Shown here piece after piece: positions 1 through 56,908 of a stretch of DNA of 64,000 bases (its first letter is position 1; every line of letters starts with the position of its first letter). The translations under genes and the position numbers were made by a program. Below the pieces are notes generated by a model. That model saw nothing but the letters and a program-made list of their open reading frames with translations. It did no database searches and was not told the origin of the DNA. The DNA is from Cyanidioschyzon merolae (taxonomy: Eukaryota). The stretch lies in assembly GCA_000091205.1 (NCBI GenBank), contig AP006502.2; one strand, given 5' to 3'.

Positions 1-283
1 GATACTTCCAGTATCTCTGGAATCTTGCAGAACAAAGTGTGCAGGATAGGCCTGATCGAGCGCGAAACGCTCATACTCAGCGGGGGTGCTCGACCTCGGC
101 ACTTGTCGTGCCGTGTTTCAGGAACACGCACGGGCGACGACTGCATCCGTTGTCTCGATAGGAGCGCTCTGCTCGGTTACTGTGAGAGAAACGGCGGCCC
201 AGGGCGCGTTGCAACTGCATTCGTTTGAGAGCACGCACTCGCACGCGCATCCCTGGCGTGGGAGCGCGTCACCCTACCCAGCC

Positions 284-820
284 ATGGTTTCGGTGCGACG
301 TGCGACGCCCGCTGACCTCTTGGCCATGCAATACTGTAACTTGCAATGTCTCCCAGAGAACTACCAAATCAAGTACTACATGTACCACCTGCTGTCGTGG
401 CCGCATTTACTCTACGTCGCAGAGGACCTAGACGGGAGCATTGTTGGGTATGTTCTTGCCAAAATGGAGGAAAGCCCCGGATCCACGGACGCGGGCTCCA
501 GTTCAAACACAGCAGCGACCTCTGGGGCTGTTAAACCGGTGCGTCATGGTCACATCACTTCGCTGGCGGTGCAACGGTCTCATCGAAAACTCGGTATCGC
601 GAAACGATTGATGTGTATCGCACATCAGGCAATGCGTGAGGAGTACAATGCTGCCTATGTATCGTTACATGTTCGGTTGAGCAACGTAGCTGCGCAGCAC
701 TTGTACCGAGACTCGTTAGGCTATCAAATCCATACCACTGAGGTTCGTTACTATGCGGATGGTGAGGATGCGTACGATATGCGGTTGTGGTTCTGTTCTG
801 ACTCGATCCCGAAAGCATGA
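284..820 (+). CDS. NAA10: N-alpha-acetyltransferase catalytic subunit (NatA Naa10/ARD1)
   Basis: Near-collinear match to Naa10, including MQ.CNL.CLPENYQ.KYY.YH and [15 protein letters not shown]. The ORF-track start at 86 is GTG; trimmed to the first ATG ([13 protein letters not shown]). Confidence 0.85.
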
Positions 821-1544
821 GTATTGAGCGCAATCAGTGCATGTTCAGGCAAGATTTGCAGCAAAGCAGCACCACTGGGGAACGAGCCGCTGTCCAACGC
901 TTTGTGAATGCTTGATCAAACGCTTAAATGGCTCAACGAAATGTCGGTGCATGAAGCTGTAGGTGCAGTGTGCAGACCAGCGAGACTCGAAGGGGATTGT
1001 GGTGGCCTCAGTGCAGTTCGCACTCGCATGCGGGGACCCAGCGAGCCTCTATGGCCTTGGAGCAACTGGTACCAACTCTTTACCATCGAGAATCGTGTCG
1101 TTTTTGTTTTGGTGTTGATTTGGGAACCGGGTACCCGACATATTATCCATGTCTTATGCCTGGAGTAAACAAATTCAGAGCCCGCGTCTACGTAACCAGC
1201 CTAGTGCTACCCGAAAATTCTGACAAGCGTCTTTATCGTGTATCAAGAGTTTCCGCACGAGGTTTCCAATGCGCTTTCGGACGGAGAACCGAAGCGATAG
1301 GCGTTCTGGTAGCTGTCGCGGGGGCATCATCGACATATGCTGAAAGAATAGAAACTCTGCTCTGACTAGCAACTCGATAACAGTTTCGTTTGACCTTGAT
1401 TGTAAGCGCAGAAATGGGGAAAAGTTTCAGTATCTCGGAAAGTTTACCTTTTAGGCGGAAGGTCCCGCGAGCCGGACGAGTCTTCGGGGCTAGCTAGTGC
1501 TTCATGCTTCCTCCAGTGGCGGGTTCTTTAAAGAAACCTGAGCT

Positions 1545-1910
1545 ACTCGTCCGTAACGCAATTCAATCTGGGACTAGGAGCGTGTATGCTGCGTCTGGGC
1601 GTCGCCCTGGTCGCAGTGGACGCCCAGTATATCGCACCGTGCCGCCGCAGGCAGTGCGTCTCTCTGCGCAGCTTCCAGGCTCCTAGAATGATTAAGTACT
1701 CCGACTCCGTGTCCGATGAACCACGCCTCGAGCCGACGCCCTCAGTGGTATGCCAAAGCCGTTCTGTCTCCGTGCAGCACCTGCTTCGGCGGTATATAAG
1801 CGCTACGGCGGGTGCTCAAAACAGCTAGTCGGCGCACTATAGAACATACGAAACGACCAGTATATCAGAGAGCATGTATGGGTGATAGAACTTGAAGGTA
1901 GATGCTTCAT
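1545..1910. repeat. ~370-bp dispersed repeat, copy A (paralogue of 13291-13665, ~70% identity, same orientation)
   Basis: Shared blocks include gctactcgtccg, cccagtatatcgc, ccgcaggca, gcaggctcc(c/t)agaat.atgat.tactccgac.ccgt, ctcgagccg, gccgttctgtct.cgtgc, acgaaacgac.a.tatatc and atgcttca. Confidence 0.6.
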
Positions 1911-2362
1911 GATGGACGCTTTCCCGAAAGCCATTATCCTTTCCGAATCCTCGGATCCATGGTCAGTCTAAACATTCTCTCATCTGAAAAGAATTCGACA
2001 TACGCTGTGTAAATGTTCAAAGCGAGCACCATATGAACTGGAACGCTACCAATGGCTAGAACGTGTGTCGAAGGAGACCTATTCATCCCGAGGAAGGTCT
2101 CGTGGGGTCTTCTCGGGCGCTCCGGCGCACGCGCCAAGCAAATTTCGAACCTCCGCTTGTGCTTATACAAGCATGGGAGACAAGCACTTCATGAACACCA
2201 CCATGACGAAGCTTTACCGCTACTAAACGAAAGTAGACTGGTTAAACTTGACGAAAGCGTTCAGGTTCCTTTGTGCAATTCATCAGACTGCTTACTTTTG
2301 GGTCCCGTCCCAGGTTTACGGCTGCGGAGCGAGCACTTACAAACGGGACTCATCCAGCGCGT

Positions 2363-4120
2363 ATGGCCCCCGAAAGTGCACAAGTAACCAGTTTCGACGC
2401 GTTCCTCCATAGTGTGAGTGCTTGGGAGCACCTTCTCGAGTCTGATGCTCAGGAAACAGCGCAGAAGCAACTGAACGTCCTTCGACGCTCAGTGCCGCGC
2501 CAGCGGACCCCGAACGAACCAACACCCAGAGACGCAGCACACGCCCTCGAGACACTCTGGCTGAAGAAACACGCTGCCCTGTGGTATCGCTGGACGCCGA
2601 CCCTATGTCAGGGAGTGCGAAACGGACGCGCTGCTTCCTGCTCGCTGCTGTGCTTCCTTTTCGACGGGGCGCAGCGTTTCCTGTACCCGCTCTGTGGGAT
2701 GGTACTCAAGGCGCCACGACGTGCGACACGCATGGAAGGAGCACCAAACGCAACCAGCACCATGAAGAGCGCTCGACAGCAGACGTTTGTGCCCATGTCG
2801 GAACGGTATCGGTTGCATCTTCAACTGGTCTACGATACACTGGTCGAAACGATGCAGGCGCAGCTGACCCAAGCTGCAACTGCATTGACCGGTATAGTCA
2901 GCAGGGGAGGTGTGGATTCCAGCACCTCGACCTGTCAGCTCATGCGCTGCCTCGGGGTCGTGGTGCAGAATACGCCATCACGCTGTCTCCCGAGCGCACA
3001 GCTCAAGACCGCCGGGAACCTGCTCTGGGACCAGTACGCGCTTTCACTTGGGCCAGAGCTTGAAACGCTTCGAGCAGCGGCCATCTCCTGTCTGAAAAGT
3101 ATTCATGATCGTCTACAAACCATACCGCCGCTGGAGCAGCTTTTAGCGAATCCGCTGCGCTGGAATGATGCGCACGTGGTTTCGTTCGTGGAAGCCATGC
3201 TAACACTACGCATGCGTCATCTGAGCAGGGTCCAAGAATCCGCACCCGACAGCACTGCCGTCGACGAACTGGTACTTGCGATGGTCGAGCATCATTTTCG
3301 AAGTGCATCGACGAGTCCAGCGCTGCGACTACAAAGCGCCCGTCTCTTGCGCTTGCTGTTGCGCTCGCGGCCATCGATCGCAAGTTCGCGTAACGCACTC
3401 CTGTTCCGCATGTTGAAGGATCCCTTCCACGCGGTACGTGTGGTTGCCATCGCCTGTTTGAGTCAGCCTGGAATTGGAGCCGCAGGCACGCCGCTCTTTC
3501 GAGAGCTCGAGGCGTTAACCGCTGACCCCATTGCATCGATGCGCGCCGCTGCGTGTACCGCATTAGGGCGGCTCGCGGCGGATCCAGGCGCGTTCATCCC
3601 TCAAACAGAACCTACGATCATTCTCGATAACGACTGGAATGCATTGAAAGGGCGTGCGATGGATCTTCTACTGAAGCGACTCGAAGAAGATCCAAATGTC
3701 CATGTTCGAGCAGCTGCCGCCTACTCGTTGAGCCAGTTCTGCACGCATGCAGAACGCTTGGCGGCGCGACTCCCCGAGAGGATCATCGAATTGGCGATTG
3801 ATGAACTTCGACGTGCACCATATTCGAGTCAAGCAAGCGCGTACTGTCGCCTTCTGGGTGCGTCCGTCCCGTCCGAAGCACAGCGAACACAGATCGTTGT
3901 GGTGATCGGGGATATTGTGCAGGGTGCACGTCGAAAGGCGCTGCGCCAACAGGCGATCCTGGCGCTGGCGAAGCATGTACGACCTGCCGACGGGGCGGCA
4001 CGCTGGTCGCTTGCACAGAAGCCGGACAACGAACTGGACCTGGATCAGTGTGGACGAAACGCTGCGCCAGCGGAAACGCCACATCAGGATGCGGTTGCTT
4101 CGAATCGGACGGGAGCGTAG
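2363..4120 (+). CDS. HEAT/ARM-repeat protein, function unassigned
   Basis: 585-aa ORF from the first ATG (the track start at 2273 is GTG). Repeated DP..VR.AA..AL helical repeats such as DPNVHVRAAAAYSL, DPIASMRAAACTAL and DPFHAVRVVAIACL. No specific family recognised. Confidence 0.45.
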   Translation: MAPESAQVTSFDAFLHSVSAWEHLLESDAQETAQKQLNVLRRSVPRQRTPNEPTPRDAAHALETLWLKKHAALWYRWTPTLCQGVRNGRAASCSLLCFLFDGAQRFLYPLCGMVLKAPRRATRMEGAPNATSTMKSARQQTFVPMSERYRLHLQLVYDTLVETMQAQLTQAATALTGIVSRGGVDSSTSTCQLMRCLGVVVQNTPSRCLPSAQLKTAGNLLWDQYALSLGPELETLRAAAISCLKSIHDRLQTIPPLEQLLANPLRWNDAHVVSFVEAMLTLRMRHLSRVQESAPDSTAVDELVLAMVEHHFRSASTSPALRLQSARLLRLLLRSRPSIASSRNALLFRMLKDPFHAVRVVAIACLSQPGIGAAGTPLFRELEALTADPIASMRAAACTALGRLAADPGAFIPQTEPTIILDNDWNALKGRAMDLLLKRLEEDPNVHVRAAAAYSLSQFCTHAERLAARLPERIIELAIDELRRAPYSSQASAYCRLLGASVPSEAQRTQIVVVIGDIVQGARRKALRQQAILALAKHVRPADGAARWSLAQKPDNELDLDQCGRNAAPAETPHQDAVASNRTGA

Positions 4121-10896: not shown

Positions 10897-11055
10897 CAGG
10901 TAGAGTGGGAGCCTGACGGGCTGTTTGCCGCACCAAGCGACGTTCTAAACTCGAACGACGTCGGGCGTGTACAGTAGTGGCGAACCGTACGCCCTGGACA
11001 AGAAGTCTTCAACCGAGGTGCAGACGCCTCCCCGTCTTTTTGGACCGGCTACCTA

Positions 11056-12801
11056 CTACTGATTCCAATTTTTCTCATATAATTCAACTTTTAGAGGTTG
11101 TCTACTAAAGTTCTCTCTTGTCCATTCTGGAGGTCTTTTCTCCAGCACCGCACATTTCCCTATATTGACAGCGGCGTTAACGTCACGGTTCACAAACTCC
11201 ATCCGTTTCTTGCCATCACTGGTTGTACTTCCTAATGCAAGTAGTCCACGAACTTTCGACATCCTTTCCATATGCTCTTCCGTCAGCGGTCCATACCTTT
11301 TTATATCCTCAGGGCTCCTCTGGCACTTTTCTATCCCGACCCCTTGAAGTGTGCACGCCACTTCATGGTGTGTATACGATGTGCGAACCTCACCTACAAG
11401 TATTGTAACGAAACGCCTTGCGCACTCCGTGTACGTTCTCGTCGTTGGAGCTGGTGTAGTTCCTTTTTGGGTCATCCAGTGTCCTGCTCCGTATGTTGCT
11501 ACGAGCCTCTGACCTTCATTCCCCTTCAAGGCGCTCAACTCATTGAAAAAATTCGCGAACGCCCCCTGCTTCCCACAATACAAATTCATTCGCAAACGAG
11601 CCCACCGGGGCTTGGCATACTCCTCCCACAGCGCATCCCAATGAGCGACGCGAACTTCCATAAACTCCCGAAAAGCTTTAAAATCCGCTCCTCGGCTTGT
11701 CACCTCGCTCAAAGCTTCCAGGTGCTCGTTCATTCCTGAATTCCACGTCTCTATTTTCTTCCTTGCATTCATGATTCCCGATTCTCGATAGTATCTCGCT
11801 CTCGAGAACCTCAAAAGACGCATGTCTTTCTGACGTAAGTTACCATCAGTGCCATCTTTCGCACGCTTCGGTGCTGCGATGGTTATGATATTTGTGCTTC
11901 CTGGGTCCGCACCAACGGCAAATTCGTTATCCTGCACTTTCTGCGTCTCAGGACCCGCCTCTTTTTTTTCTTCATGCTTTACCGCGTCAACGACGAAGTC
12001 GTTATCCTCCACCTCTTGCGTCGCAGGATCTGCCTCCTTCTCATCTTCATCCTTCGTCACGTCAACGACGAGGTCGTTATCCTGTACTTTCTGCATCGCA
12101 GGTTCCGCATCCTTCCCATCTTCATCCTTCGTCACGTCAACGACGAGGTCGTTATCCTGTACTTTCTGCATCGCAGGTTCCGCCTCCTTCTCATCTTCAT
12201 GGTTCGCCGAGGGCGGAACTGGACGATCTGTCTTCAACTGCCGATAGTGTACACACAACGCTACTCCATCGGTTTCGATCATCCTAGTGAACAACTTTTG
12301 TTTGCTCACTTTGAGACGTTTGAAATCGAAGATATTCTTCCAGTACGCCTCCTGGTTTTCACCGGAGAACTCCTTCCTGCTAACATTGAACTCCAGACTG
12401 ATCTCCTTAAAGATGCCGTAAAGGACGCCGGAGGCGATACTCAAAAAATGTGACTTGATGTTGTACATTGGAACCACGTTGAAGCGCTTACCCATCAGGA
12501 ACGCCTTCCGTCTCTCCCACTCTTTATTTGTCTCCTCACGCAGCTTCATCTCTGCCTTGCGTTCGAGCTCTCGGTCCAGAAACACGAAATAGCGCAGGAC
12601 GAGGCAATAGTATCTTTCCTTATGTTTTTTCAACTCTGATATCTTGTCTGTTGGATTCGCCAACCCCAAGACTGCACGATGCTCTCGTATAACCGCACGG
12701 ATGACAGAAGCTTCATTCGTGCTCCTGCGTGACGCCTTCTCATAGACGAATTCGATCTCCTGCTCATGCTGGCGATCGTTCGTGATGCCATTGATAATCG
12801 T
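11056..12801 (-). CDS. TnpB/Fanzor-like RuvC nuclease (OrfB_Zn_ribbon type); no ATG start and likely decayed at the 5' end
   Basis: RuvC-I-like [15 protein letters not shown]. TnpB TS..C-type motif [14 protein letters not shown]...C. RuvC-III hallmark [17 protein letters not shown]. The open frame runs from a stop at 12802 to 11056 with a TTG at 12669 and no in-frame ATG before residue ~40. Confidence 0.6.
11926..12210. repeat. tandem 75-bp repeat (3.8 copies) inside the Fanzor-like ORF
   Basis: Units at 11926, 12001, 12076 and 12151 all start gttatcct. They encode acidic 25-aa units ([25 protein letters not shown] x4) just N-terminal of the RuvC-I motif. Copies 3 and 4 are nearly identical. 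Confidence 0.85.
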
Positions 12802-13257
12802 CTATATCCTCTTGGGAGAGATGCCCGGGTAGAGTGCAAACACGGCGCGTATCATGAGACGTTCGAGGTTCATTGTCAAATCGTTCATCAGGTTTCTGAG
12901 GTACTTTTCGCCCCGTAGTTGTAAATATTCCCGTCATCCTTGTATCGAGTACCGTTGGGGCGGGATTCTGCGTAATTTTAGTGCAGGGCATGCACTCGCT
13001 CATTTCTCCTCGACGTTTCCCTCGTACCAAGCATCAGGTGACGAATATAGGTCTTGTCGAAGAACTCGTCCGGAACCTCGACCGTTTCCATGTGCGTCAC
13101 GTCGCGATACATCTCCCTTACCAATTGCATCAGTCCTGACGACGCCTTTACAATACTCTTGGAGTACGAATCGACACGGTTTCTGATCGCATCTCGCAAC
13201 TTTTCCTTGTACGGATCCTTGATATGTGCAAGAAGGTTCCCCAGGCTTGTGGTTCAT
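12802..13257 (-). pseudogene. frameshifted ORF fragments directly upstream of the Fanzor-like frame (probable decayed N-terminal region)
   Basis: Three minus-strand ORFs in three different frames abut and overlap (13257-13000, 13199-12978, 13030-12764). A single frameshift near 12790 would join ...[14 protein letters not shown] to [12 protein letters not shown].... Confidence 0.4.
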
Positions 13258-13290
13258 GCTCCCCCATTGTCTAGTGTTATCGTGAGATCT

Positions 13291-13665
13291 AAGCTACTCG
13301 TCCGCAGTGCAGTTCATTCTGGGACCGTGAACGGGATCATTGGGCGTAACGCTGGTCCCAGTTGACTCCCAGTATATCGCTTCACTGCCGCAGGCAATGA
13401 GTCTATCTTTACAGTTTGCAGGCTCCCAGAATAATGATGTACTCCGACCCCGTATCGAGTGGGTCACCCCTCGAGCCGGCGCCATCTGTGGTACGGCAAC
13501 GCCGTTCTGTCTGCGTGCGGCGACCGCATCGGCGCTTTAGGCGCCATTGCGCACTACCAGGGCAAGCAATCGGCACACGATTGAACGTACGAAACGACGA
13601 TTATATCCGAGAAGGAGTACGGATAATGTTACTTGGAAGTAGGGTATGGATCGATGGATGCTTCA
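13291..13665. repeat. ~370-bp dispersed repeat, copy B (paralogue of 1545-1910)
   Basis: See copy A. It lies immediately 5' of the Fanzor-like ORF fragments. Local GC-rich hairpins gcggcgaccgc and ggcgctttaggcgcc. Confidence 0.6.
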
Positions 13666-15735
13666 CCGCGCACTGAAACAAAGAACAACGAAAAGAAAAG
13701 GCGTACAATCGGAGAAGGTTGGCCTCTGAAAGTGTGTTGTCAACTAAAAAAACTTCCATGCGCCAAGCAAGGCGATGCGGTAAGTTCGTTCGGACACAGC
13801 TACGCATTGATCAAGGTGGCAAGAGAGAATGGTGCTGTAGCCGGTTCGTGTGCGGAAGTTGCGTTCGGTCTGGTCCCTGCGGATTTGAGGACAGTGTCCC
13901 TTCATTACCGCTCGTAGGGACGGTGTGGAAACTTCACTTGATGTGGCTTGATTTATCGAATTTCTTAGAGAACATCCGGTAGGGAGTGGATTGATTACAA
14001 GTCAGTCTTGTAGAGAGCGTTGGCTACGTTCTGTTTTGGGTATGTGTATGTGATGTACAGGATAGGGAATACTGGGCATGTGCTTCATTCACTTGCTGAC
14101 CGTAAAATGACTAATTCGTAAACTTCATACCTGTTTTGCATGCGAGCACTAAGATCTTCACATCATTCCGCAACGTGTCTGCGATCGACCGAAAGCATGC
14201 TTTCAAGTACCTGCATGAGAAACAAAATAAAACGGATTGCGCCGGCACACGAGGTCCAGAGTTCACTGGTACGCGTATCGAGAGAACACAACGCAGGCGC
14301 TGTACCAAGGAGATTAAAATGGAACATTGACCTGCGTTCTCTGTCCTTACGTTTTGGTGATTCGCAAGTTTCTTATCCGATCTACAGCCTCGATATTCCA
14401 AGTGCAGCAATAGGGGATTCCACATTCACATCTCGTTCTAGGATTTTCGGCGGTGGTTTCGAAGTGGCTGCATCGACGCAGCCCCGCTCGAATGCATTCG
14501 ATCACCGGCATCACGGGGATTTGTGGCGTCCTCTCAAATAGATTCCTACAGAACCGATACGATTGTCTATTTCATGGGTGCGAGCCTCGGTTCTTTCCCT
14601 GACTTTACGTACAGGACGCACAAACCATGCATTCTTCAAGATTTCGATCTCACTCTTTCAAGGCAACACCTAAGCAGAACGACATGCTTCCCGAGGGTGA
14701 TGAGAAAAAGAATATGGCTTCGTCCTTTGAGTACTTGTTCACAAGCTCCTGCCAAAAGTTCATGGAACTTCTTGCGTCAAATAATCGATTCCATTCGAAC
14801 GACAAAGCCCATTTTCATCGTTGCAAAAGAGGAACCAGTATTCAACAGCAGCATGCTAATTTACGAGAGGTATACGCCAAGAGGCCCTTGTCTTCAAGCT
14901 TTGCACTAGAGAAAAGTCCTGGACTCGCTGCGCACGCATTATAGCAATCGCTACCACTAGAGGCCGAGTCACCAATTCTGGAAAAGGGAACGTAAGCGGA
15001 TTGCAATGCCTCGACTTGATCTCCGACCTGGATTTTCCGGACGACACTCGTTTCATCATTGACAAAATCGCGTTCCATGAAGCCTTAATCGACAGGAACA
15101 GCTCACGCTTGCTTGCGCAACGGACAGGGTAATTGTCAATGGCCTCACCGAGGAAGAGCCCATGGATGTAGGGTACGACACCTTTGTCTCGCGGACCTAT
15201 GACGGCACTGAGGGTACCGTCTGCACCCGTCATGCGCACGCATCGAGCGATGAAGCCAGCGTTCGCGCGCTCCAAGACGGCTCCCTGAGGCGGACGGCTG
15301 CTGGTCTTATGCGAACCCCTGAGAACAATCAAGTGCCACCGCTGCGAAGGGCGCACAGAAGCTGTATTCAAAGACGCTTGAAGTGTCAAGCGAAGCCTAG
15401 ATCGCAATGACCATGAGTGCATGAAACGCGTCGACAACGCCGGGAATCGGCGTGATCAGAAGTTCAACGCTGCCGTGTACTTCCTTGGGCCTGTGACAAC
15501 GCCACTGGAGGATACAGAGACATCGGCATATTCAGAGCCGGAGCTTAGAGCGCGAGGAAACGGAAGCAGTCACAGAAACAGCGTGCCGCGCTTCGTGTCG
15601 GTGAGAAACGGAAGAAACCAAAACTGTAGAGAGCACATCCGAACTCGCAAACCAGACCTTTTCTATTCATGTCTGACACGAGTGTAACTGCCTGTTTGTG
15701 CTGACCCTGCACGTGTCGCGCTCGAGTCGCTCACG

Positions 15736-15740
15736 AAAAA
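15736..15740 (-). terminator. Pol III T5 terminator downstream of tRNA-Val
   Basis: aaaaa on the plus strand is TTTTT on the minus strand, ~10 nt 3' of the tRNA end. Confidence 0.5.
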
Positions 15741-15749
15741 GGGAATTTG

Positions 15750-15823
15750 TATCGGCGGCGCGACTCGAACGCGCGATCTTGTGCGTGTGAAGCACACGTC
15801 ATAACCAACTAGACCACGCCGAC
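15750..15823 (-). tRNA. tRNA-Val (anticodon CAC)
   Basis: Reverse-complement GTCGGCGTGGTCTAGTTGGTTATGACGTGTGCTTCACACGCACAAGATCGCGCGTTCGAGTCGCGCCGAT+A folds as a cloverleaf. Anticodon stem TGTGC/GCACA, loop TTCACAC. T-arm GCGCG-TTCGAGT-CGCGC. Close to eukaryotic tRNA-Val-CAC. Confidence 0.85.
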
Positions 15824-52329: not shown

Positions 52330-55300
52330 GAGCTCGACGCTGAACTCCTGGGGAACTGTGTACGGGGCAAGAACGCGAACCTGCTCCCTGCGCCACACGC
52401 CAGCAGTTCGCAGCAACAGGTGGCATGGTGTCTAGGTCATGGGGACTGGACTCTACCGCGGCTCGATCTAGACATTCCGCAACAGACTTGGAACTATGAA
52501 CGTGATGGGGTATAAGTTGAGCGATATGATCCATACAGAGAGCGGAGGAGTACGCGAAGCGCAGCCATTGCGTAACGGACGACTTGAATCGATCGATATG
52601 AGCGGGTAACTAATCAGAAATGCGATCGGAATACTGAGCGAGTGATGATTCGGGTGCGAGTATTCCCCCAATAGACTCCAACATGTTCATGTGATTGGGT
52701 AACTCGTCGGGGGTATGGTGCGAATAGAGAGCCAAAGAGTGCGAAAGTGTTTCTGGTGATGATTCCCCAATAGAAGCAGGAGCGTGGTAAACTTTGTGTC
52801 CTCGTAGCCAGACTCTTATGCCGAATGCTTGACATTTTTCGAGAAAGCTTCAGAGCAGCTACTGCTCATGCTCGCAACGCGATAATTTTCCTGCTCTGGA
52901 GCGAAGAGGAAACACTCGAGAGCTAATGCGATCACAAGGGAACTTGAGCATGCACCGCATACACTCGGATTGGATGGTGTTATAGACACAGCGTGCCGGC
53001 ATTGTACGCAGAGCAGCAAAATCCCGAATACCTGCACCAGCACGCACTTTTCGTTTCCGTTCGTTTCTCCGCGCAGGTATTCAAGAAAACGACTGTCTCC
53101 TGTAGAGTGGAGAACGTTTGCCAAAGTGCTTCATGCTTTCAGTGGTAGCGTGCAAGCATACTGGGCTCACTTCCACGAATTCGTCATGCTGCAGTAACCA
53201 GGTAGATGAATCGCGCTTCTCGTTGTCCTTGTTCTGAACGTGGCGTACTGAAAACAGATCCCGTTGAATTCTATCTACAGAAATGTCTCCTCGTGAGCAA
53301 AGCCCATTCCATTTTTTTCTGAGAAATTCTATAAAACAGGCCGGAGCATATGACGCTTCCATGTCGTTGATGCGAACGGTGATGACGAGAAGCGGACAGA
53401 CAGAGAAAAACAAACCTCTATGCGGGACCATCGCGTATTGAACAAGACGCATTCGATTACGCCATGAAAGAGGAACGCATGCTGTACCAGAGACAGGTTT
53501 TCGTGTTCCTCACTGAGACCTGTTTCGTGAGAAATCTTAGACCCGTGTATGGGTGAACAAAGAGCAGCAATCCGTTGTTCTTGAACGAGATACAAGCGAG
53601 CATGGTGGCAAAAAAAACTGCCCTGGTGGCGATTCAGTCGATTGGTCACGTACCAGTCGCCAGTCGGACAGAATCGTTGAACACTTCCTCCTTTGTCAAA
53701 TCATGCCGTGTCGTCCACTTCGAATATTCTCCTGTCCCGCTCTTAGACAGCGTCAGTTTCCTTCACTCAGAAACTATCACAGATCATGCAGTTGAGACTG
53801 CGGTTGAGCTCCTCTTCGATTTGGATTATTCTCCCTGGCTAGATCCATTCAAAGGCGTCTTTTCCGTTTGCAAACGCCATTTCTGCGCACGCCGATCACT
53901 AGAGGAGTCCTTTGCATCCGCAAAACCGAAAGATTCAGTAAGGCATGAAGAATCGCGTAACTTGTGAATCGAGAACATCGCTCCTAGTCACACTTGCCTT
54001 CACGCTCCTTGTCAAGCGACCCATCGGACGCGTTCCGTACGCAGGGCTGCTAATTATCCACGTTCTTCGGAATTTTTTCAATGAAATCTTCGCAGAGCAG
54101 CATATATGATGCTCGGGGCTGTGGACGCAAATCGGTTTGGTCGAAGGTTCATAGATTCACATACACGAACACGCTTCCAAGCATCCCTTGAAGCGCTGCC
54201 GCGCCGCCTCGGCGACGGAAACAAATGTAACCGTTCAGGTGCCAGAAAGCATCGAACCGAGCTCAATAGTCATACGCTGTTCAATGTCGTGCAATTCAGT
54301 CTGCACACCCTATAGGCGTTGCACACTTAGCTTACTAGATCAGATAAGTTGAGAATAGTGTGCGGAATTCCTGGGCTGTAACCGGAGGCAAATAATCAGC
54401 TATGGGCCGGAGAGTTCCCAGTGGTTGCCAGTTCGGATGCGACGTCACGATAAAGACGCGAGTTGTTTCAGATCGTCCAAGCTCACTAGCTGCCCTTGGC
54501 CTCGGACGGACGGGTGTCGTATCCAAACGATACGTGAAACTTGATGGCTCCTTGCGCTGCATCTTGCAGTACAAGGTTCTTATGAAAAGAGTCCTCCCGA
54601 TCAGAGCAGACTTCCTCCCAGAATCCGAGCGCCCTCACCCCCTCAAGCATCTGTTCTGTGTGTGGTCCCGGTATCTCAGCTCAAGGCCGATGATATCAGC
54701 GCAGAGAGTTGCGAACTCTATGAACTGATCATTGAGTTGCACCTGATCACTGCGATTGAAAATGTAGCACTGGGACAACTTTAGAAAAGATCATTGGTGG
54801 AGCTCGTTCCCGACTTCTCGTGTACAGGATGGCAATGAAAAGAAGTTTGCATGAACGATTGAGACCAACAGAATATCCATATGTATGCCTCTCGTGAGAA
54901 CTACGCCTCAGTCGAACAACGAGACTCATTTTCAATCCTTCACCATCGATGAAGGGCAAGACACTCCGGTGGCCGTGGATCCCACGTTGCGTGGCGTTAT
55001 AGCCATCGCCATGCCTTTCAATCAAGGGTGACGCAGCACAAATTTGAACGGAGTGCAGCTGAAGCTGAAAAACTTCCACAGAGCTCGTTGTCGTCCGGGG
55101 TCGGACATGTTGGACAGCAGGAGCCGACGAGCAAATGGAATCGCGGCGTCAGGATCCATCTCGATGCTCTGAGCATCGTGTCCTGCAGAGGAGCATGCTT
55201 AGTGCGCTTCATTCTGAGAGTCTATGCGCGTCGAAGTTGCTCACATGATCGAAACCTGGCAGGAATGCATGGTATTGCGCTGGAGTCGCCCAAAGCTTTG

Positions 55301-56908
55301 GGTTTACGAACACAGGAAATGAGTATTCTCAAAATTCTTCTATGATTTCGAAAGGGAAATTACAGAAAGTTCACTTCGGTTGGTGGCAGCCGCTGACGCG
55401 CTACATGCTGTAGCGCGTCAGGATCGCTCGCCTGCTCCTTCAACAAGTGCGTACCATGAGTCATGCATCGATTCTATATGATTCCTTTCGATGCGTCCGG
55501 GACGACGTACAAGCATCACGAGCACGCAGGTATTGGTAGGAAAGAAAGCGGTGGTTCAGCCCCGGATGCACAAGATGGCGTGCGGCAAGCTTACCGAACG
55601 TCAGATGACGAGACGTTCCTATGTATGAGGCTTGATTCGATGCGATACGAATAGCAACCATGCACACAAGAACGTTCTACATCGAGGCTTGAACACCTCA
55701 ATCAACATCTGGGAACGAGTTGTACTTCCGGAGCGTACTGCGGCTTCGTGTCGAGCGATCATGAAACGTACTCGTTTCGTGCTCAGTATGAGCATTGTGC
55801 TGAATTGCTGCAGACTTTCGATGAAAATCTCGCCGGTCAAGAGAGATGGCGCAGGATTCTCGTCCAGAGCAAGGCACTGGTACGAAAAGGTCAGCAATCC
55901 AGAAACGCTGGTGCGCCATCCACAGCGATACCGGGAACGATATTCCTCGGTTAATGATGTACGATAATAGTATTCTCTTATTCGATGTTGCTGGGGTTTG
56001 TTGATGATCACGCTTTCGTGCAAACAGCGCATCCTTCGAGGACTCCATGCAGATCCCGGACTCCGCTCGTGTGAAAATCGGCGCTGCAACGTCCCATGTA
56101 GTGAGAAACTGCCCAGATAGAGCGTCCGATTTCGCTCAACTTGGTGTACACGAGTAGTTTCAACGGCAGGCATGGTGCACCAGGCAGCCTCGTCCAGCCT
56201 CTAGCCATACTATTGCGAAACCATTTATACAGGACAGAACAGCGCTCGCCCGGAGCCTAGTCTTGCGGCTGTAGACCGCTGAGCAGGACGATCGTGTGCA
56301 ACGACTTGAACGAGCGCGCCGGGTAGAGCTGTAGCATTCCAAGTGCGTTTGACGTTAAAATCCCATTAGTTCCTGGATATTCATCGGTTCAGTGCAATCC
56401 GGTGGTGCATATACGATCGTTGCGGGGCGATACTACACAGGACGCGTCTTGCGAGGACAAGCCATCTGGTCTCGTATGGTGCTATTTTGAACCTGCTTAA
56501 TGGTCTCGATGAAATTCGTGGCGCTCGCGGGTACGATATCCCACAGCAGTCATTCGCTGCATCAGGCTAAAGGTTTACAGTTTCGTGCGAAGCTACGTGC
56601 GCCTTGGATGAAGAGCGCACTCCGCGTCAATCACCACGGGTTTCACCCTCTAGAATACGATACATCCTATGCATTCGTTTAATATCGACAGTTCAGAACG
56701 AAGCTCGATCCCCGTGTTGCACACTCGATAGAGTAAGAAGCGCACAGTTGCGTCAATAGCGATATGCGTGATGCTACCCCTAACGACGCGAGGTGCACAG
56801 CGCATGGACATTGTCGTCCACTGATAGCGCTCTGGTTGTTTCAGCGCCGGGCGCTTCTGCCATAATGCGCGCCCTCGGGCATTGAGCAACGAAACGCTCT
56901 GGCACGAG

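Follow-up and report, generated by a model that had tools for sequence, protein, structure and literature searches.

A probable relic of the Fanzor1-carrying repeat CMe-1A on chromosome 20 of Cyanidioschyzon merolae

Introduction

A long open reading frame that carries the catalytic motifs of the TnpB lineage and lies among ordinary nuclear genes raises the question of whether it is a working nuclease gene, a gene domesticated by its host or the remains of a mobile element. Such a frame occupies positions 11056-12801 on the minus strand of a 64,000-nucleotide piece of Cyanidioschyzon merolae 10D chromosome 20, the whole of which is referred to here as the window. An earlier note, made from the letters of the DNA, had described the frame as a Fanzor, a eukaryotic TnpB homolog, that might be decaying, domesticated or mis-assembled. 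In the analysis below, the frame is very probably a broken, non-functional copy of the Fanzor1-carrying element CMe-1A that has been decaying after an old insertion.

CMe-1A was described by Bao & Jurka (2013, Mobile DNA 4:12; Repbase; PMC3627910) as one Fanzor1 family in C. merolae, the only Fanzor family that they gave for this species. It is a repeat of ~3.2 kb present in ~150 copies, each ~80% identical to a 3169-bp consensus, with no terminal inverted repeats and no target duplications assigned to it (PMC3627910). The gene consists of a single exon encoding the 734-aa protein CMe-1, placed in Fanzor1, and the first 635 bp of the element are common to a second repeat, TE-N2_CMe (PMC3627910). 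Some members of the family have been reported intact. Since the CMe-1A family was published in 2013, the locus is already known, as a pseudogenised member of that family.

Results

Match of the locus to the CMe-1A consensus

The CMe-1A consensus DNA and the CMe-1 protein were taken from the supplementary files of Bao & Jurka and compared to the window by blastn and global alignment. The copy extends over 10938-13745 on the minus strand, corresponding to consensus 1-3169 with an internal deletion and an expansion, and the similarity includes both ends of the element (13745 and 10938). Consensus 65-494 aligned with window 13663-13241 at 74% identity, consensus 1080-2193 with window 13235-12135 at 87% and consensus 2124-3137 with window 11979-10967 at 88%; over consensus 1080-3137 as a whole, nucleotide identity was 87-88%, and the protein encoded by the frame matched the published CMe-1. 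The 5' segment (13241-13745, minus strand; consensus 1-494), which is the part shared with TE-N2_CMe, is 74% identical. The sequence is also multicopy, with 71 related loci in hot-spring metagenomes, and its host is C. merolae.

The surroundings of the frame are ordinary nuclear genes. Six other long open reading frames of the window matched C. merolae 10D proteins exactly, which bears out the earlier statement that the neighbors are all eukaryotic. Immediately downstream, the copy adjoins the gene for BAM83315 (9007-10896, minus strand), whose 629-aa product is annotated as 'similar to glycogenin-interacting protein'. The 3' terminus of the element at 10938 lies 41 bp (10897-10937) upstream of the ATG of this gene, on the same strand. 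On the other side, the region upstream of the element (13746-15748) showed no repeat among the metagenome loci compared. Both ARAGORN and a short-range Rfam search (62 bits) identified a tRNA-Val(CAC) gene at 15749-15823 (minus strand), which escaped a whole-window Rfam run at default filter settings.

Two other repeats were observed in the window. A solo TE-N2_CMe copy at 1343-1984 (minus strand) matched CMe-1A consensus 2-636 with 81.5% identity and is preceded by a T-rich flank (...TTCTTTTC), as are CMe-1A copies. A second Fanzor1-like relic, much more decayed and with many stops, lies at 54489-55802 on the plus strand; it retains RuvC-I as 'VAVDP', and its RuvC-III NRD has changed to HRG. 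This relic belongs to a different subfamily; it matches the metagenome protein P0070 best (32% identity, E 4e-44) and shares only 26% identity with CMe-1. None of the C. merolae 10D GenBank proteins was among the CMe-1 homologs found, and CMe-1A copies, intact ones included, all seem to have been passed over in the reference annotation.

The open frame and its catalytic residues

The minus-strand frame at 11056-12801, which includes a stop codon at 11056-11058, runs through 581 residues without a stop, in line with the ~580 codons given earlier, and covers CMe-1 residues ~204-709 together with a repeat expansion. The chance of a 581-codon frame in 64 kb at 55% GC, estimated from base composition, is ~1e-5. 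The motifs that had been quoted for the frame were all found in its translation.

The catalytic residues, all encoded on the minus strand, were placed by alignment with the Spizellomyces Fanzor1 SpuFz1. The RuvC-I aspartate, in VGADPGS, is encoded at 11905-11907 and occupies the position of SpuFz1 D383; the RuvC-III aspartate, in an RD.NAA.N motif, is encoded at 11182-11184 and occupies that of D606. The earlier note had regarded the canonical RuvC-II glutamate as missing and the site as rearranged, and both alignment and literature agree. The canonical RuvC-II strand reads YGAG (11482-11493), with a glycine for the TnpB glutamate, and an alternative glutamate, which that note had not spotted, lies downstream in VGEVRTS (11389-11391), is invariant in the family and aligns with SpuFz1 E541. 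Fanzors are known to have Gly or Pro at the canonical RuvC-II site and to use an alternative downstream Glu (Jiang et al. 2023), and D383, E541 and D606 are the metal-coordinating residues of SpuFz1 (Saito et al. 2023).

The repeat expansion is a tandem array of 3.8 units of 75 bp (11913-12200, minus strand) that encodes an in-frame acidic repeat of 25 aa and is expanded relative to the consensus. The equivalent segment in the structural model of the relative P0002, described below, has a pLDDT below 50 and is predicted to be disordered.

Lesions of the copy

The alignment to the consensus identified a series of lesions, again on the minus strand. A 585-bp deletion of consensus 495-1079, with its junction at 13235-13241, took away the promoter/upstream region together with the ATG (consensus 906) and the initial 58 codons; the metagenome contig L074 shares this junction. 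It is followed by a nonsense codon at consensus codon 144 (GAA>TAA, 12978-12980), by a 1-bp deletion at 12907/12908 (consensus 1408), visible in tblastn as a change of frame between an upstream remnant and the long frame, and by a nonsense codon at consensus codon 203 (TGG>TAG, 12802-12804), which forms the 5' bound of the 581-codon frame. The 5' region is therefore disrupted by a frameshift, as had been proposed. The accompanying claim of no in-frame ATG is not literally correct, with one at 12549-12547 (codon 85) and others after it, and holds in the sense that the authentic start is gone. Toward the other end, a 1-bp deletion at 11068/11069 (consensus 3035), not found in the orthologous contigs L078 and L079, shifts the frame into the premature stop at 11056-11058, with loss of the last ~25 residues.

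A complete gene of 734 codons with a start is not found at the locus, where the consensus frame contains stops at 12980, 12804 and 11011. Judged from its sequence, the window copy is a pseudogene. Against this reading stand the intact Asp/Glu/Asp triad and the 581 codons that are still open. The dN/dS of the window copy versus the consensus is 0.30, and most of the 12% divergence would therefore have arisen under selection in active lineages. The long frame and the three catalytic residues would survive in a dead copy because the divergence mostly pre-dates the insertion.

Orthologous insertions

The same insertion was found beside the same 629-aa gene in independent metagenome assemblies. Contig L002 is 98.7% identical to the window over 3.8 kb comprising the element and the neighboring gene. 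The 48 differences fall mainly in the element (42), with only 4 in the 1.9-kb neighboring gene. The substitution density of the element exceeds that of the gene more than 10-fold. L002 carries an additional 1-bp deletion at 12448, L074 (a 142-kb contig) shares the 585-bp deletion, and L075 shows a possible internal deletion of consensus 2251-2767, the junction of which lies near the contig end. The window, L002 and L074 share the C-terminal frameshift, which L078 and L079 do not have. Every orthologous contig either contains the insertion or ends within it, and no empty (uninserted) allele was found among them from which a target-site duplication could be read.

Mis-assembly is rejected because the same lesions appear in independent assemblies. 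The copy is an old, fixed and decaying insertion, since old lesions are common to the strains and new ones are specific to individual strains, and nothing points to domestication. Among the three fates suggested earlier, only decay is thus retained.

A separate observation concerns 11049-11113, where the window differs at fourteen positions in 65 bp from L078 and L079, both of which have a consensus-like C-terminus. On its sequence pattern, this cluster probably reflects gene conversion between CMe-1A copies.

The alternative that comes closest to these data is a domesticated Fanzor, in which translation from, for example, the ATG at 12549 yields an N-terminally truncated protein that the host has retained in a new role. 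In its favor are the fixation of the insertion in every strain sampled, the intact catalytic triad and point estimates of dN/dS below 1 between orthologous copies. These estimates come from 8 synonymous versus 11 non-synonymous differences (dN/dS ~0.4), too few to prove neutrality, and from 3 versus 7 (dN/dS ~0.66) when the conversion tract at 11049-11113 is left out, again too few sites. However, the strains differ in disabling lesions of this one frame (the L002 deletion, the C-terminal frameshift and possibly the L075 deletion), and substitutions accumulate in the element at the elevated density given above. Additionally, the promoter region is deleted, and the ~200 missing N-terminal residues correspond to a confidently modelled helical region in P0002. 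Domestication is therefore considered very unlikely.

A functional Fanzor gene, with frameshifts that are bridged by introns or are errors of sequencing or assembly, is hardly credible. Introns are possible in Fanzor genes of other eukaryotes (Jiang et al. 2023), but the CMe-1A consensus gene is a single exon, and the window copy has in-frame stops and lacks bases present in the consensus (585 bp, 1 bp and 1 bp). Because the lesions are missing sequence, splicing cannot rescue the frame, and the recurrence of the 585-bp deletion and the frameshifts in the independent assemblies L074 and L002 argues against errors. A decaying CMe-1A copy remains the preferred reading of the locus.

Assignment of the family to Fanzor1

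The sequence of the frame itself gave no match in Pfam, NCBIfam or PDB sequences, and the assignment therefore rests on a family profile and on the published consensus. A homology search with the frame returned 96 proteins, with E-values down to 1e-297, nearly all of them from JGI metagenomes and nearly all 50-95% identical; many had previously been given PF26935 (DUF8286) as their only annotation. PF07282 (Cas12f1/TnpB zinc-ribbon, TNB) is present as well in four distant relatives with 24-28% identity. The Pfam check on PF07282 suggested for this locus consequently succeeded only in these distant relatives and failed on the frame. When the family alignment served as the query of a second search, most of the proteins recovered were the close relatives already found, and none of the additions was a named protein.

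In order to reach beyond the single sequence, a profile was built from an alignment of 21 family members (A1) and searched against the PDB. It matched the Fanzor1 proteins of Parasitella (PpFz1, 9cf0; E 1.2e-30), Spizellomyces (SpuFz1, 8gkh; E 1.2e-27) and Guillardia (GtFz1, 9cer; E 5.3e-20). No significant match was obtained outside Fanzor1, ISDra2 TnpB reaching only E 0.17. Invariant in A1 are an Asp (DPG), a Glu (DEF-R-T-S) and an Asp (NRD.NAA.N), which the HMMER alignment places at residues 777, 935 and 1000 of the MBP-fusion chain 8gkh_P; with the 394-residue offset of that chain, these are D383, E541 and D606 of SpuFz1. The catalytic positions thus align with those of a characterized homolog, as the earlier note had required of a true member of the lineage.

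The structure was modelled on P0002, a full-length relative of 752 aa that is 74% identical to the window frame. The AlphaFold2 model (pLDDT 76, pTM 0.71) was compared to the PDB with Foldseek, and the top seven matches, which were also the only significant ones, were all Fanzor1 (E 1.6e-16 to 9e-14). The TM score on the target ranged from 0.52 to 0.70 over these seven entries, and the model superposed best on SpuFz1 (0.70), PpFz1 and GtFz1; Cas12 and TnpB were far behind, with ISDra2 TnpB at E 0.04. The full-length Fanzor1 fold is accordingly found in this relative of the frame. Taken together, the CMe-1A consensus, the family profile and the fold of P0002 uphold the reading as a Fanzor and narrow it to Fanzor1.

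The frame also does not fall among prokaryotic TnpB proteins of IS200/IS605 or IS607, having no Pfam or NCBIfam match to them and lying in a eukaryotic chromosome. That the frame arose by chance and has its motifs by accident, or that it is a bacterial TnpB gained by horizontal transfer, would agree with the missing direct Pfam or NCBIfam match but has a negligible probability in view of the 96 homologs, the match to a published eukaryotic consensus, and best profile and structural matches that are eukaryotic Fanzor1, with TnpB left at the marginal E-values given above.

Loss of the zinc-ribbon cysteines

One detail of the earlier description, a C...C zinc-ribbon remnant, was not confirmed, as those cysteines lie off the canonical positions in the family alignment. 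Throughout the CMe-1 clade the four canonical cysteines are replaced (A1 columns ~960-1020; window 11200-11380), the first pair by His and Val/Leu and the second by Leu/Ala and Met, and only H, H and C remain. One Cys of the second pair persists in relatives at intermediate distance, and all four persist in the distant PF07282-matching relatives P0087, P0090 and P0093. The C4 ligands of the zinc ribbon that marks Fanzor1 between the T-S motif and RuvC-III are hence lacking in this clade. As read from the alignment, the loss is a clade-wide departure from the signature of Bao & Jurka and is not peculiar to the window copy. The ribbon domain of the P0002 model has a pLDDT of 80-90. Because CMe-1 was included in Fanzor1 by Bao & Jurka and this domain is confidently modelled, membership rests on full-length homology.

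Element ends and a putative guide RNA

The ends of the element were compared across the 71 related metagenome loci (L003-L073). Comparison with ~60 other copies set the 3' terminus of the window copy at ...GTTCGAGTTTAGAACGTCG; its 5' end was taken straight from the window sequence. Across copies the 3' boundary is sharp, with ends in ...GTTCGACTTTCGAACGGCG or ...GTTTTTCTTTTGAAAGGCG; next come TT (21-22 of 22 copies), a partly conserved TGTTG and then unrelated sequence. The 10-14 bp that precede consensus position 1, on the 5' side, resemble one another between copies and are rich in T (...TTTTGTTTTC, ...TTTTC). On the basis of these flanks, the published CMe-1A consensus may be slightly short, or the element may prefer T-rich targets; such a preference, if true, could correspond to a target-adjacent motif.

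The conserved 3' tail (10938-11075, minus strand) lies where the guide-RNA scaffolds of Fanzor and TnpB are normally encoded and is a putative equivalent. In the last ~130 nt, a long-range 9-bp stem between CAGUAGUGG (CAGUAGU(A/G)GG) and CCACUACUG is kept in ~90% of copies, and a terminal hairpin, GUUCGA...UCGAAC, can also form. The copies preserve the consensus-derived structure with almost no covariation or compensatory change. For 62 copies of this end, RNAalifold with default settings returned no consensus structure. The 3' end of the window copy showed no folding advantage over shuffled sequence (z = -1.1), the 3' UTR is as conserved (0.80) as third codon positions, with no excess, and Rfam gave no match for the element 3' end. 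From the analogy with other Fanzors, a guide RNA would be expected at the CMe-1A 3' end, where it stays putative in view of the RNAalifold result and the near absence of compensatory changes.

Discussion

These observations suggest the following history. CMe-1A is a non-autonomous DNA element that is present in many copies and has a single gene, for the Fanzor1 protein CMe-1, and intact CMe-1 is predicted, from its homology to SpuFz1, PpFz1 and GtFz1, to be an RNA-guided RuvC endonuclease. The conserved 3' end would be the source of its guide RNA, whose guide portion would extend into the flanking DNA. The copy in the window most likely acquired most of its 12% divergence from the consensus before insertion, under purifying selection in active lineages, and would have inserted upstream of the BAM83315 gene before the sampled strains diverged. 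It would then have decayed through the 585-bp deletion, two frameshifts, two or three nonsense codons and the expansion of the 75-bp repeat. The open frame of 581 codons and the still complete Asp/Glu/Asp triad are probably leftovers.

The value of this result is mostly for annotation, as it allows this CMe-1A (Fanzor1) pseudogene to be masked. It also illustrates that a reading of the raw sequence recognized a Fanzor that Pfam and NCBIfam missed on the single sequence. For tests of the CMe-1 nuclease, the refined ends, the conserved flanks and the clade-wide loss of zinc ligands may be useful, as may the evidence that the CMe-1A family is abundant in hot-spring metagenomes. Because the gap is only 41 bp and the insertion is present in every sampled strain, the promoter or 5' UTR of the BAM83315 gene may lie inside the Fanzor relic. 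Two bolder and separate ideas are offered with low confidence: that the dead element has been co-opted as regulatory DNA, and that intact CMe-1, from an alga that we take to be thermoacidophilic, is a Fanzor1 lineage free of zinc ligands that could be active at high temperature.

Comparison with known systems

The closest known system is the CMe-1A consensus itself. The window copy comes from the same species and shares with it the 5' (TE-N2_CMe-like) and 3' ends and identical catalytic motifs, but consensus 495-1079 is missing from it, two frameshifts and two or three stops interrupt it, and the 75-bp repeat expansion adds ~213 bp.

SpuFz1 (8GKH), PpFz1 (9CF0) and GtFz1 (9CER) are homologous to the CMe-1 family over most of its length and share the catalytic D/E/D residue for residue, including the rearranged Glu beside the T-S motif, although identity is only 12-15%. 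SpuFz1 elements have terminal inverted repeats of 30-33 bp and TA duplications, whereas inverted repeats are absent from CMe-1A and a duplication could not be recognized.

Finally, prokaryotic TnpB (ISDra2, 8H1J/8BF8) and Cas12f belong to the same RuvC superfamily; their RD.NAA.NI motif aligns with that of the CMe-1 family, and PF07282 is found in its distant relatives. The similarity to TnpB is nevertheless marginal (E 0.17 by profile, 0.04 by fold), and the CMe-1 family differs from it in its eukaryotic host, in having no TnpA partner, in a much larger N-terminal helical region and in the replacement of the canonical RuvC-II glutamate.
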